From: a virus
Taxonomy: Duplodnaviria > Heunggongvirae > Uroviricota > Caudoviricetes
Strand: one strand, 5' to 3'
IMG/VR virus record: IMGVR_UViG_2681813320_000017
Length of the DNA stretch: 4,569 nt
Below, one piece after another: positions 482-3,969 of the stretch. The translations under genes and the position numbers were made by a program. Under the pieces are notes generated by a model. The model saw nothing but the letters and a program-made list of their open reading frames with translations, was not told the DNA's origin and did no database searches. How positions within the stretch are numbered: position 1 is the stretch's first letter; the number at the start of each line of letters is the position of its first letter.

Positions 482-614
482 TTTTTGGGACTCCTGGCTG
501 ATTAAGTATGTCGATAAGGCGTTTCCATCCGTCACGTAATTTACGGGTGATTCGTTCAAGTAAAGATTCGGAAGGGCAGCCAGCAACAGGCCACCCTGCA
601 ATGGCATATTGCAT
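450..614 (-). CDS. cIII: CIII, FtsH protease inhibitor that stabilises CII (54 aa)
   Basis: Internal Met of the 450..674 track [57 protein letters not shown] matches recalled lambda CIII. ATG at 612-614 preceded by AAGGAG at about 6 nt spacing; stop TAA at 450-452. Confidence 0.85.
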   Translation of the reverse strand: MQYAIAGWPVAGCPSESLLERITRKLRDGWKRLIDILNQPGVPKNGSNTYGYPD

Positions 615-762
615 GGTGTGCTCCTTATTTATACATAACGAAAACGCCTCGAGTGAAGCGTTATTGGTATGCATATAAAAAGGCCCTCACACTGGAGGGC
701 AAAGAAGATTTCCAATAATCAGAACAAGTCGGCTCCTGTTTGGTTACGAGCGACATTGCTCC

Positions 763-804: not shown

Positions 805-1275
805 CTAATAAAACACCCAGTTTTCTGTTTCTTGGTTGTGTCCAAAGTTATATTCAATATCTGGTGTTGATGTATCAATATTCTTCATCCCATCAACAAG
901 AGTTGATACAACAGCCAAATCTTGTTTGATTCTCATTAAATGGTATTTCTTCCGGTGCAATAAACTCTCAATGGCAAGTTTCTTCGTTGGGAATGCAAAA
1001 GATCTTTCTGCATTTTTTGCTACTTTCTTAATTGCATATCTATTTCTCCTTTGTTTCCATTCCTGTAACCACTGATTTGGTGCTGGTTTAAAATTAACAA
1101 TCCAATGCGCAGGAACCAACCATGCATAATGCTCTGTCTGATGAAAAGCTATATATTGAAGTGCGAATATTTTTATCCCATCTTCTTCAACTGTCGCCTG
1201 GAATCTCCAGAAAACAGGCATTCCATCATGTTCAGTTTCTGATTCAGGAAAAGGTACGCTCCATGATTTTGTCAT
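805..1275 (-). CDS. Hypothetical protein, 156 aa, no recognisable family; accessory gene between N and cIII
   Basis: Full ORF with ATG at 1273-1275 preceded by GAGGTGA about 6 nt upstream; stop TAG at 805-807. Same strand and operon context as N, cIII, kil and gam. Visibly AT-richer than the flanking core genes. I cannot match it to lambda ral, sieB or ea10. Confidence 0.7.
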   Translation of the reverse strand: MTKSWSVPFPESETEHDGMPVFWRFQATVEEDGIKIFALQYIAFHQTEHYAWLVPAHWIVNFKPAPNQWLQEWKQRRNRYAIKKVAKNAERSFAFPTKKLAIESLLHRKKYHLMRIKQDLAVVSTLVDGMKNIDTSTPDIEYNFGHNQETENWVFY

Positions 1276-1333: not shown

Positions 1334-1606
1334 TCACCTCGCCGTCAGTTGTTTGGATTTCCGGTAGCCTGCAGCGTAAATGGCTACGTTTGGAAGACAA
1401 GTTGAACCTTCATATTTTCTGGTCAACGTTGTCAGAGTTATAACTTCTGCTCTCATTGCTGGTTTGCGCTTGCATTGCAAGACCACTCGTGAAGGGGTTG
1501 GCCTGTGTAGCTTGTCGGAGCTAATCGACTCCTGACTTTGCAGGTTTGCGCGACGAGCTCTACGGCGAGAAGCTGCGGTGCCTTTAAATTCTGTTTTTCT
1601 GGACAT
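1334..1606 (-). CDS. N: N-like transcription antitermination protein (90 aa) with N-terminal arginine-rich motif
   Basis: The track ORF 1334..1678 has an internal ATG at 1604-1606 preceded by a strong SD (GGGAGGA, about 5 nt spacing). The product starts MSRKTEFKGTAASRRRARRANLQ..., an arginine-rich motif like the boxB-binding ARM of lambdoid N proteins (my recollection is that it is closest to the phage 21 type). It sits immediately downstream of a boxA/boxB nut site, in the position N occupies in lambda. Confidence 0.75.
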   Translation of the reverse strand: MSRKTEFKGTAASRRRARRANLQSQESISSDKLHRPTPSRVVLQCKRKPAMRAEVITLTTLTRKYEGSTCLPNVAIYAAGYRKSKQLTAR

Positions 1607-1704
1607 AGATTCCTCCCGAATAAACTTTGGCGATGCAATCTCGAAGCTCCTCCTGAGACGGTTGCTTCGGCATTGCATCCCACAGCTTATGTGGTTGGGT
1701 GATC

Positions 1705-1751
1705 TGGCTTTTCAGCCACGTAGTCGAGAGTTCGACGTTGTTTAAAGAGCC
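1705..1751 (-). promoter_or_regulatory. nutL: nutL-like site: boxA (GGCTCTTTAAACAACG, rc of 1736-1751) plus boxB hairpin (UGGCU-GAAA-AGCCA, rc of 1705-1718)
   Basis: On the minus strand, GCTCTTTAAACAACG matches the boxA consensus (GCTCTTTAACAA-like). It is followed after 17 nt by a perfect 5-bp stem with a GAAA loop. The same arrangement (GCTCTTT..AACAACG, then ..CTACGT.GCTGAAAAGC.AG hairpin) recurs downstream of cro at 4205-4250. A second small hairpin, GTCGA-ACTC-TCGAC, lies in the spacer. Confidence 0.6.
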
Positions 1752-1794
1752 TGCCAGTCTGTTCCGTTTGGCTTCCAGCGTCCTGCTGATGGTG

Positions 1795-2023: not shown

Positions 2024-2050
2024 CAAAGAAAACCCGGCACTGAGGCCGGG
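2024..2050 (-). terminator. Rho-independent terminator ending the cI/ORF111/ORF227 operon
   Basis: Minus-strand RNA would form CCCGGC-loop-GCCGGG (plus 2033-2038 / 2045-2050, 6-bp GC-rich stem, 6-nt loop) followed by UUUUCUUU (rc of 2024-2031). It starts 7 nt after the ORF227 stop codon (2057-2059). Confidence 0.6.
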
Positions 2051-2056
2051 TGTGTA

Positions 2057-2740
2057 TTAGGGGGTTGAGACTCCAGAGAGCAATCCGTAGATTTTATATA
2101 CAGCAAATGCTAATGCTGGCAAGCCAAGGGCCCATTTGATTATATCAAGCTTAACATCACTAAGCTTACCTTCTAACTTTGCCTCTTGAACAGAAAGAGC
2201 TGCATCGATCTTTTTTGATTGGGAGTCAAGGGCACTCTCAATTCTACTCGATTGTATGTCCAGACGACTGTTGATTTGTTCGTGCTGAGTAACAACTAAA
2301 TGCTTCATCTCCTTTATATCTGAAGCCATTAGTTCACGCCATTTGGCCATATCAGCCTGCATTTTTGAGGCCACTGCATCCACTTCAGCTTTATTTGCCT
2401 TCAGAAGTGCCTGTATTTCGTTTCTGCTCAAATCGGACATTGCGGTTCCCTGTATAGGAGTTTCCTCGTACGGTGGGATAACATTAGATTGTCCTTTACA
2501 ATCGGCAACCCCTCCTTTATCTACGATTGTAGCAGTTAGCTGGGAATTGGTCGCATCATCCACCATGTTTTTTGGTGAATAAGAGGAAATAGGCGTAGAA
2601 AACAGATTACCTTTTGCTGTTTCCATGAACATCATGAAATCGCGAGTATTAACGTTATTCAGGGAAACTTGCAGTGGTTTAACAATACTTGATGTTTTGT
2701 AAGTAATAGTTAAATCACCTACTTCTTCCGGTTGTTGCAT
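2057..2740 (-). CDS. Hypothetical membrane-anchored coiled-coil protein (227 aa); distal gene of the cassette at the rexAB position
   Basis: ATG at 2738-2740 overlaps the upstream gene's stop (TAATG, translational coupling); stop TAA at 2057-2059. Ser/Thr/Asn-rich N-terminal about 100 aa; central region with heptad-like charged/hydrophobic periodicity (EIQALLKANKAEVDAVASKMQADMAKWRELMA...IDAALSVQEAKLEGKLSDVKLD); single C-terminal hydrophobic helix IIKWALGLPALAFAVYKIYGLL. Not similar to lambda RexA or RexB. Confidence 0.75.
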   Translation of the reverse strand: MQQPEEVGDLTITYKTSSIVKPLQVSLNNVNTRDFMMFMETAKGNLFSTPISSYSPKNMVDDATNSQLTATIVDKGGVADCKGQSNVIPPYEETPIQGTAMSDLSRNEIQALLKANKAEVDAVASKMQADMAKWRELMASDIKEMKHLVVTQHEQINSRLDIQSSRIESALDSQSKKIDAALSVQEAKLEGKLSDVKLDIIKWALGLPALAFAVYKIYGLLSGVSTP

Positions 2741-3060
2741 TACGACTTCGCTCCATTAGAGTTTTGTGCCTCTAATTGTTCGAAAAGAAGAACTATATTC
2801 TCTTGAAGAGCCTTTAGTTGTGCCATTGGCATTATCACAGTGCATTGCTGATTGAGTTCATTTACAGAGCCTATCTGCATATTCGCTCTACCTGGTTGAT
2901 CTGGTATATCATTTTGGGATAGTACCGCAGGTATTGACTTGTTTGCGATAAAATGTATACAAATGAGATTTTTTTCCGCTCCCGGTAGTGGAGCAAAACT
3001 AGCGAAGTCCGCATAGGTTTCAATATAATCCACAGATGGTTTAATTTTGACCGGTTCCAT
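2740..3060 (-). CDS. Hypothetical small protein (about 106 aa); proximal gene of the cassette at the rexAB position
   Basis: Track ORF 2740..3075 begins with TTG (3073-3075) then ATG (3070-3072), neither with an SD. The ATG at 3058-3060 (MEPVKIKPSVDYIETY...) is preceded by GAGAGG, so I place the start there; alternative starts at 3072 or 3075. Stop TAA at 2740-2742 overlaps the ORF227 ATG. No recognisable domain. Confidence 0.65.
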   Translation of the reverse strand: MEPVKIKPSVDYIETYADFASFAPLPGAEKNLICIHFIANKSIPAVLSQNDIPDQPGRANMQIGSVNELNQQCTVIMPMAQLKALQENIVLLFEQLEAQNSNGAKS

Positions 3061-3077
3061 AACGCCTCTCATCAAAT

Positions 3078-3106
3078 ATTGTAGGTTTTTTAATTCAATG
3101 TGTTAA
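3078..3106 (-). promoter_or_regulatory. Candidate sigma70 promoter for the ORF111/ORF227 cassette, independent of cI
   Basis: Minus strand: -35 TTAACA (rc of 3101-3106), 17-nt spacer, -10 TACAAT (rc of 3078-3083), in an AT-rich 108-bp gap between the cI stop (3184) and ORF111. Predicted start site lies just upstream of the GAGAGG SD. Analogous in position to lambda pLIT. Confidence 0.3.
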
Positions 3107-3183
3107 ATGTTGGTGGTGTGTTATTTAAAGTTATTTTGACATCCTCCACGCCCTGAAGGACGGGGCTTGTCGCGTACTTGAAG

Positions 3184-3891
3184 TCACAAACTTTTCAGCC
3201 ACTCCCTTGCCTCGATGTCATCCAGATGACGAGATTGCTTCAGAATACCAGCCACATACTCCACCTTTGCTACTTGATGATAAGGTAACGTTATTGGCCT
3301 GTGGTCCTGGTTGATGCTTGTAAATTGGTATTCTCCATCTCTGTCATAGCCAAGAATCTTGATCATGTTGTGTCCTTCAACGGTTCTGACAAACACCTCA
3401 TCCCCCGGGAATACTTTGGTGTTAGGCTCAATGAGTACATATTCTCCTGATTTTATTCTGGGCCACATGCTGTCTCCTTTCACACGAAGACCAAAGGCAT
3501 CTGGATCATCACTATAAATCTTGAGCCACCCATCGCGCTCTTCGGTCATCTCGATGGCACCATCAACACCAAGAATTGCCTCACCAACCACGCGCACTAA
3601 CCCTTTTTTTAATTTGCCAACAAATGAAAGAGTATCTTCATCATTCGCTCCATTTAACGAAGTGCCGTGCTGAAGCCAAACAACATCAACGTTTAGAAAT
3701 TTCGCAAGCGCATTCATTTTTTCCTGACGCGGTAAAGACTCAGCATTAAACCATTTGCTAACGCCTTTGGACGAAAGAGAAAGGGCACGGGCTATGGCCA
3801 TACCCCTACCATGTTCATCAAGACCAGCTTCTTTACAGGCTTGCGCTAGCCGCTGGGCGAATTCTTTGCGCACTTTTTCATTCTGAACCAT
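3184..3891 (-). CDS. cI: CI-type prophage repressor, N-terminal HTH DNA-binding domain plus C-terminal LexA-like S24 autopeptidase domain (235 aa)
   Basis: ATG at 3889-3891, stop TGA at 3184-3186. HTH-like segment GMAIARALSLSSKGVSKWFNAE; catalytic Ser in GDSMWP (Ser141) and Lys in HNMIKIL (Lys178), with 37-residue Ser-Lys spacing as in LexA. Divergent from cro across a 78-bp operator region. No SD before the ATG, consistent with a lambda-like leaderless pRM transcript. Confidence 0.9.
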   Translation of the reverse strand: MVQNEKVRKEFAQRLAQACKEAGLDEHGRGMAIARALSLSSKGVSKWFNAESLPRQEKMNALAKFLNVDVVWLQHGTSLNGANDEDTLSFVGKLKKGLVRVVGEAILGVDGAIEMTEERDGWLKIYSDDPDAFGLRVKGDSMWPRIKSGEYVLIEPNTKVFPGDEVFVRTVEGHNMIKILGYDRDGEYQFTSINQDHRPITLPYHQVAKVEYVAGILKQSRHLDDIEAREWLKSL

Positions 3892-3969
3892 GAGTACGAT
3901 ACTAAAGCACTTGCAAAAACTTTCAGTTCAACCATAATGCGTACTAAAAGTACGAAAAGGGATATTCCT
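3892..3969. promoter_or_regulatory. OR region: pR promoter (-35 TTGCAA 3911-3916, 16-nt spacer, -10 CATAAT 3933-3938), operator palindrome CGTACT-AAA-AGTACG (3940-3954), and probable pRM on the minus strand
   Basis: Divergent intergenic region between cI and cro. Near-consensus rightward promoter. A perfect 6-bp inverted repeat with 3-bp spacer lies right at the predicted pR start site. Further GTACG half-site-like motifs at 3893-3898 (AGTACGATACT). Minus-strand TAGTAT shortly upstream of the cI ATG is a candidate pRM -10. Confidence 0.7.

Follow-up and report, generated by a model that had tools for sequence, protein, structure and literature searches.

The window of 4,569 nucleotides analysed here is the immunity region of a lambda-like prophage of E. 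coli. Between cI and oL it carries a mobile accessory operon, or moron, of two genes, which encode a small soluble protein, ORF-A, and a coiled-coil protein with a C-terminal anchor, ORF-B. On position, architecture and conservation pattern, we infer a pair made of a sensor and a membrane effector. The boldest reading is that A-B represents a new prophage two-component abortive-infection family, in which a DUF3467/COMM-like protein and an evolving head would gate a coiled-coil stalk capable of disabling the inner membrane; we give this reading a probability of roughly 0.3. The broader proposal, that the cassette acts in phage exclusion in one way or another, deserves more credit, though in our estimate somewhat less than an even chance. 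The features on which the argument is built are the following:

gam, kil and cIII, minus strand: the leftmost genes of the window
569-627: match to the Rfam lambda cIII thermoregulator
805-1275, minus strand: an ORF of 156 aa
1334-1606, minus strand: N antiterminator (PF25694, 1e-31)
1829-1843: oL operator-like 15-mer from the repeat search, the left limit of the slot
2024-2051, minus strand: intrinsic terminator (a G+C-rich hairpin and a T-run) closing the cI-A-B transcript
2053-3178: exchangeable cargo unit, with homology breaks at 2052/2054 and 3179
2057-2740, minus strand: ORF-B, 227 aa (phrog_14825, 8e-129)
2740-3060, minus strand: ORF-A, 106 aa, with an ATG start, a beta-sheet and a C-terminal helix
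3061-3183, minus strand: cI-to-ORF-A intergenic region, with a promoter-like site, the Shine-Dalgarno sequence GAGAGG and an element of 31-34 nt
3184-3891, minus strand: cI-type repressor of 235 aa with HTH and S24 peptidase domains (Pfam Peptidase_S24 4.8e-16, HTH_3; phrog_4)
3887-3901 and 3943-3957: oR operator-like copies of the oL 15-mer, between cI and cro, from the same repeat search
cro and cII, plus strand: beyond cI

The minus strand thus reads cI, ORF-A, ORF-B, the intrinsic terminator and oL, and since the cassette lies between cI and oL/pL it occupies the position that rexA-rexB hold in lambda. This placement in the rex slot had been proposed in an earlier note on the same DNA, and the operator-like repeats and the location of N both agree with it. 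A close relative, the prophage of E. coli PC-NDM34, has its integration site next to ybhC and displays the complete lambda gene order; in the relatives, the counterparts of cI are annotated as LexA family regulators.

The two genes form a genuine translationally coupled cassette, as claimed from the letters alone: the ORF coordinates support it and the stop codon of ORF-A and the start codon of ORF-B share the overlap TAATG at 2738-2742. The length of ORF-A had been left at 106 to 111 aa, and of these the shorter version stands. The longer one (2740-3075, minus strand, 111 aa from a TTG at 3075) is less likely, and the ATG at 3060 is preferred because the Shine-Dalgarno GAGAGG lies 5 nt upstream of it, the homologues start with MEP... 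and PGAP calls a gene of 321 nt. The intrinsic terminator predicted at the 3' end of the cassette was also detected and reads, at 2051-2032, ACCCGGCCTCAGTGCCGGGT followed by TTTCTTT; it was found in the window and in one of the three relatives scanned. It falls in a flank common to prophages with other cargo, 53 nt of which are identical in cassette-free genomes. The cassette is AT-richer than cI and gam, as the earlier note had it, but the difference is modest: the GC content is 39.6% for ORF-A and 41.2% for ORF-B, that is 4-6 points under the 45.5% of cI, with 49.1% for N and 51.5% for gam.

The suggested separate promoter at 3078-3106 found no support beyond chance. The promoter-like site TTAACA-17-TACAAT is present at 3106-3078 and matches the consensus at 10 of 12 positions, but the region shows no excess of sites of this kind over shuffled sequence (4 found for 4.5 expected), and consensus matches are not enriched in three homologous loci either, so that a promoter belonging to the cassette is a possibility only. 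Weak promoter-like matches land in the spacer between cI and ORF-A in three of the four loci (the window and the three homologous ones). With the exception of the first 5 nt past the cI stop, this spacer is part of the swapped cargo, and its element of 31-34 nt at 3135-3169 recurs elsewhere. A structured RNA in the spacer was considered and rejected, its fold being no better than that of shuffles (z of -0.16) and without any match in Rfam. In the window, no terminator-like site was found between cI and ORF-A. The lack of both a terminator and a stable RNA at this place favours read-through from the cI promoter, and the lysogenic cI transcript most likely reads into the cassette, which would then be co-transcribed with cI in the lysogen.

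ORF-A is an acidic (pI of 4.75) and soluble protein, for which AlphaFold2 (AF2) returned a confident model with a beta-sheet plus helix fold. This fold weakly resembles COMM and PC4, both of which are small beta-sheet-plus-helix dimerisation folds, and a fold search against BFVD retrieved two uncharacterised phage proteins with an E of about 1e-3. The family is tiny: a profile built from 3 sequences found 13 representative relatives among 1.84 billion proteins, far fewer than for ORF-B, and its members occur only beside ORF-B homologues. An assignment of ORF-A to DUF3467 (PF11950), suggested by the UniRef label of one homologue (P0056), was abandoned, as the Pfam profile gave no match with E up to 10 to any sequence of the alignments A1 and A5; a literature search on DUF3467 gave no function for that family.

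ORF-B is modelled by AF2 (mean pLDDT of 72, above 90 in the stalk) as three successive parts: a folded beta-beta-alpha head (residues 7-45), a disordered linker rich in Ser, Thr and Asn (residues 48-98), which is hypervariable and unalignable between homologues, and one long helix (residues 103-222) with a hydrophobic segment at its C-terminal end. The coiled coil and the single C-terminal anchor described in the earlier note are therefore retained, but not its Ser/Thr/Asn-rich N-terminal domain: the Ser/Thr/Asn-rich part is the linker 48-98, and the N-terminal fold is the segment 7-45. The possibility that this head duplicates a part of ORF-A was rejected with an hhalign probability of 0.6%. 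Hardly any variation is seen among homologues over the 40 residues that open the helix (MSDLNRNE.QALLKANKAEVDAVAS.MQADMAKWRE) or over the C-terminal segment (IIKWALGLPALAF.VYKIYG), in which K, W, G, P and Y are nearly always kept. This segment is the sole hydrophobic stretch, with its maximum at residues 196-222 and the anchor at about 200-222; a tail of 5 residues follows, and there is no N-terminal signal sequence. The most plausible interpretation of ORF-B is a tail-anchored protein of the inner membrane that has nearly all of its mass on the cytoplasmic side. With a Kyte-Doolittle score of 1.49 over 19 residues, the C-terminal segment is only moderately hydrophobic, and two lysines lie within it; the E. 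coli anchor could thus be a peripheral amphipathic helix instead of a pore-forming transmembrane segment. Distant relatives present at the same place a strongly hydrophobic transmembrane segment and, after it, a tail rich in Pro and Gln.

Profile searches and structure predictions, which had been proposed as a check, were run on both proteins, and neither has strong homology to a characterised family. Single sequences and profiles compared with Pfam, PHROG, NCBIfam, PADLOC and the PDB gave only a sub-threshold CCDC90-like match and PHROGs with no assigned function. More precisely, neither protein resembles an NCBIfam family or a solved structure, Foldseek found no match for ORF-B in the PDB, and in PADLOC-DB v2.0.0 ORF-A had no match and ORF-B only a chance-level coiled-coil match to HEC-07 (E of 0.009, 12.5 bits). 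The CCDC90-like/DUF1640 match of ORF-B (PF07798) covers residues 106-214 with 28.1 bits and an E of 2.1e-6, below the Pfam cutoff of 33.5, and the precomputed PF07798 matches for its homologues are graded weak or faint; PGAP names the protein 'CCDC90 family protein'. What ORF-B shares with CCDC90-like/DUF1640 proteins (MCUR1/CCDC90B in mitochondria, DUF1640 in bacteria) is a coiled-coil stalk running into a C-terminal anchor. In DUF1640 the stalk starts with a beta-layer motif, [aliphatic]-A-T-K-x-[D/E] (PMC4786415), which is absent from ORF-B, where A-M-S-D-L-S/N is found with a family consensus of M-S-D-L-N-R-N-E. Two further features are specific to the A-B family, its head domain and its obligatory small partner. 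The accessible literature on DUF1640/CCDC90, DUF3467 and the RefSeq accessions of the proteins gave no link to phage defence. Finally, a search among 50,697 phage records for near-identical DNA and by tblastn matched neither gene, and the cassette is known from prophages and metagenomes only.

The closest comparison is with the RexA-RexB system of lambda. Both pairs lie after cI and before a terminator and oL, in the same orientation as the repressor, and both consist of a soluble first protein and a membrane second one, presumably expressed in the lysogen. The components differ, as had been noticed from the first reading. RexA (PF15969) has 279 aa against 106 for ORF-A. RexB (PF15968) is a polytopic protein of 144 aa, whereas ORF-B is a protein of 227 aa with a long coiled coil in the cytoplasm and one anchor, at its C-terminus. 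No similarity was found by BLASTP between ORF-A and lambda RexA, by profile and sequence comparison between RexB and ORF-B, or by Pfam and PADLOC for either protein, using RexA profiles (Pfam and PADLOC) that recover lambda RexA at 1e-97 and 9e-110.

The cI-adjacent slot exchanges its content at fixed points. Compared by blastn with the loci L016 and L017, the window loses homology at two points. The left one, 2052/2054, coincides with the edge of the terminator stem; the right one, 3179, lies 5 nt beyond the stop codon of cI. The same cI accession, WP_002431456.1, is common to a locus carrying A-B (L001) and to one carrying PD-Lambda-2 (L016). The cargo found in the slot of other prophages is the following:

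L016: PD-Lambda-2 A and B (padloc, 6e-43 and 4e-50) and a third gene
L017: a ClpP/SDH-like protease
L022 (O157:H7): DUF3024/PDC-S43, an unknown protein and a Stk-like Ser/Thr kinase of the PD-T4-6/mad6 type (kinase, 7e-50)
L023: a protein of 299 aa with no known role
L024: a P63C-domain protein

PD-Lambda-2 is a TA-derived and experimentally validated Abi system, and the Stk kinase of 933W reportedly excludes HK97. The presence of PD-Lambda-2 and of a PD-T4-6-like kinase at identical breakpoints, beside the same cI type, supports the view that the slot is a hotspot for diverse exclusion and defence cargo, the claim from which the idea of an exclusion cassette had started. According to a study of BstA, the region from cI to N is an established hotspot of mosaicism where rexAB and bstA are found, and BstA is conserved downstream of prophage repressors (PMC8585504). 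BstA from the Salmonella prophage BTP1, PD-Lambda-2 and the 933W Stk/PD-T4-6-like kinase are thus alternative occupants of a repressor-adjacent slot; their proteins and domains are unrelated to those of A-B and none has a tail-anchored coiled coil. As an argument about function, hotspot membership is guilt by association, because the P63C protein, the 299-aa protein and the protease found in the slot have no known role.

The survey of co-occurrence near cI that had been suggested revealed a pairing kept across genera and immunity types. In E. coli, the cassette is present in 40 of 5426 complete genomes with about 99.9% identity, as compared to 427 genomes for the cI type of the window. ORF-B homologues of 214-233 aa with 35-67% identity exist in Klebsiella, Yersinia, Providencia and metagenomes, and each full-length ORF-B whose context was examined (in E. 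coli, Klebsiella, Yersinia, Providencia, Arsenophonus and metagenomes) has an ORF-A homologue of 94-106 aa directly upstream. In E. coli, Klebsiella, Yersinia, the cI-adjacent Providencia loci and metagenomic phages, the pair lies just 3' of an S24 repressor and is co-oriented with it; in Arsenophonus it stands beside a short HTH repressor, and in Providencia alcalifaciens away from any repressor. Among the viral contigs of IMG/VR, ORF-A is detectable directly upstream in 14 of 22 B-type loci, and a co-oriented repressor is upstream in 12 of these 14 A-B loci and adjacent in 11. A scan of species-representative genomes added only 4 distant loci, and the ORFs of 92-96 aa found upstream of distant B-like genes gave an hhalign probability of 12% against ORF-A, too low to establish similarity. 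Cryptic prophages of Klebsiella contain degraded copies without an obvious intact A-B pair.

The two genes also diverge together. For pairwise divergence, the Spearman correlation is 0.95 between A and B and 0.32 between A and cI, and identical A-B pairs adjoin repressors which are only 68% identical (L002/L003) or 39% identical (L005/L007). This co-divergence, together with the identical pairs next to dissimilar repressors, indicates that the cassette moves as a unit between immunity types. The same mobility bears on the first alternative to be weighed, according to which A and B are accessory genes for lysogeny or host physiology without a role in defence: a modulator of prophage induction or of the CI-Cro switch, a factor for membrane stress or stationary phase, or a moron for virulence or fitness. 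Genes in this slot are expressed in the lysogen whatever their role, several of the sampled cargoes have no known defence role, and the tail-anchored coiled coil of ORF-B, with its sub-threshold match to CCDC90/DUF1640, recalls a family that the literature searched does not connect with phage defence. Genes at the core of lysogeny would, however, be expected to stay with one immunity type, which the cassette does not, and the cassette is rare, patchy and mobile, with validated defence systems taking its place between the same breakpoints in other prophages. We consider this explanation rather improbable.

The way in which conservation is distributed along the two proteins bears on how an exclusion system could be built. 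Across three genera, the identity is 77-90% for the stalk and anchor of ORF-B, 44-62% for ORF-A and 33-52% for the ORF-B head. Such a split fits a variable sensor (ORF-A and the head of ORF-B) joined to a conserved effector; it could also come merely from differing structural constraints. The pattern of a stable stalk and anchor with a fast-evolving ORF-A, head and linker lends support to a protective role, in which the cassette would shield the lysogen from other phages. Under the abortive-infection reading, ORF-B would be anchored by its tail in the inner membrane with its head, linker and coiled coil in the cytoplasm, and ORF-A would be a cytoplasmic dimerising beta-sheet/helix protein which binds the fast-evolving head, either to keep it inactive or to signal to it. 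The complex of ORF-A with the ORF-B head would be disturbed by some product of the infecting phage, the coiled-coil/transmembrane stalk would then re-pack or oligomerise, membrane function would collapse and the infection would abort, with a Rex-like outcome produced by unrelated parts. This specific path from sensor to membrane stalk is tentative, and we think it more doubtful than probable.

A membrane protein made in the lysogen could also act earlier, and a second alternative is superinfection exclusion by a block of DNA entry at the inner membrane, as for SieA, Imm and HK97 gp15. ORF-B, which is predicted to be membrane-anchored and presumed to be expressed in the lysogen, would occupy or modify some component of the host inner membrane that serves in the entry of phage genomes, with ORF-A as a cofactor, and the Pro/Gln-rich tail of the distant relatives, if periplasmic, could reach incoming phage parts. 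To our knowledge, the entry blockers described so far have exposed parts that are periplasmic or polytopic, whereas the E. coli, Klebsiella and Yersinia forms of ORF-B are predicted to be almost wholly cytoplasmic, with only 5-6 residues past the anchor, and ORF-A entirely so. Since ORF-B is scarcely periplasmic and since the requirement for a soluble cytoplasmic partner better suits intracellular sensing, a membrane output triggered from inside the cell is favoured over a block of entry, which appears quite unlikely.

The layout of the operon suggests a third alternative, a toxin-antitoxin-like addiction module in which ORF-B would be a membrane toxin and ORF-A its antitoxin, stabilising the prophage without any anti-phage role. 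The arrangement fits that of type II TA operons, with a small gene for an acidic product coming first and sharing TAATG with the larger gene that follows, and the TA-derived PD-Lambda-2 lies in the same slot of sister prophages. Against this, neither ORF-A nor ORF-B has homology to the TA families of Pfam and NCBIfam, and degraded copies persist in the cryptic prophages of Klebsiella. Because TA-like prophage cargo is often defensive, this alternative also overlaps the abortive-infection reading; as a separate explanation it has a slim chance. Finally, that the two ORFs are chance open frames in AT-rich filler, an idea that draws on the absence of any match above threshold to a curated family, is effectively refuted by conservation between genera: in several of them the ORFs keep their length, order and overlap, and the protein sequences are conserved down to about 20-50% identity. 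The confident AF2 model of ORF-A and the strong PHROG match of ORF-B also speak against this idea.

The kind of system proposed here, a prophage exclusion cargo beside cI in which one component is soluble and the other sits in the membrane, is well known, and to specialists unknown defence genes at this hotspot come as no surprise; the proteins ORF-A and ORF-B are new to it, with no description in the accessible literature. If A-B is defensive, a new protein family joins the anti-phage repertoire, and two orphan protein types, including bacterial DUF1640-like tail-anchored proteins, would receive a first function. At only 1.1 kb, the pair would be a compact counterpart of RexAB, with a mechanism that could prove easier to solve than that of Rex, and its simplicity and clear division into variable and conserved parts would make it a tractable model of how a cytoplasmic signal reaches a membrane effector. 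The occurrence of the cassette in clinical E. coli lineages and in prophages of Klebsiella and Yersinia means that it could affect the host range of phages used in therapy. If A-B is not defensive, the cassette still illustrates how cargo is swapped at fixed breakpoints beside cI.

The slot running from the 3' end of cI to the terminator, which carries the A-B cassette in the window, holds other genes in sister E. coli prophages:

L016 4054-5533: PD-Lambda-2, three genes
L022 1363-3440: block of DUF3024/PDC-S43 and a Stk-like kinase
L017 4083-5087: ClpP/SDH-like protease
L023 2467-3366: 299-aa unknown protein
L024 2546-3457: P63C-domain protein

The last three of these are uncharacterised candidates located in the same hotspot as A-B. 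Exchange of cargo also seems to reach the pL operon, whose relevant elements in the window are the following:

569-627, minus strand: lambda cIII thermoregulator element (Rfam, 88.5 bits)
805-1275, minus strand: 156-aa ORF strongly matching phrog_1636, whose function is unknown
about 1584-1767, minus strand: frameshifted hypothetical ORF annotated by PGAP in relatives (equivalent to 7816-7999 of L001, the close relative carrying A-B)

The Rfam match to the thermoregulator confirmed that the operon is of the lambda type. The GC content of the 156-aa ORF is very low (36%), and Pfam, PADLOC, NCBIfam and PDB gave no match to it. It stands in place of the ral gene found in L001, and the window also lacks the DUF2528 gene present in that relative. 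The ORF looks like a second swapped cargo. The frameshifted ORF, which in relatives shares sequence with the beginning of N and with the nutL region, probably reflects an artefact of annotation within the pL transcript leader.

Inside the upstream spacer of the A-B cargo lies a short stretch with matches elsewhere:

3135-3169: stretch of 31-34 nt, tgacatcctccacgccctgaaggacggggcttgtc

It is 100% identical to a site in 44 Stx-phage records, located within the small ORF L0135 of 933W, beside morons and hok/sok, and a site after parA in the E. coli plasmid pCE8-2 also matches it. The stretch could represent a short repeat that is shared and either marks moron boundaries or is mobile.

Degraded copies of the cassette were found in Klebsiella (L009 4111-5492; L010), in which truncation leaves a repressor of 106 aa and B is broken into a 163-aa C-terminal ORF and fragments, showing that the cassette decays together with cryptic prophages. 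More distant B-like proteins are encoded at these loci:

L040 2457-3459, L042 2526-3429, L018/L019 (Xenorhabdus-type)
L046-L048

They have in common a stalk (...KANKAEVD..MA.WREQQN), a transmembrane segment that is strongly hydrophobic, and a tail rich in Pro and Gln. Their upstream partners differ: those of the Xenorhabdus-type loci are 131-172 aa long and start with MVKC.KCL, and those of the other loci are ORFs of 92-96 aa, only faintly A-like and in some cases found with their B-like genes within tail-gene regions. Together, these shared elements and differing partners suggest that the B-like proteins form a wider modular family whose partners are exchangeable.
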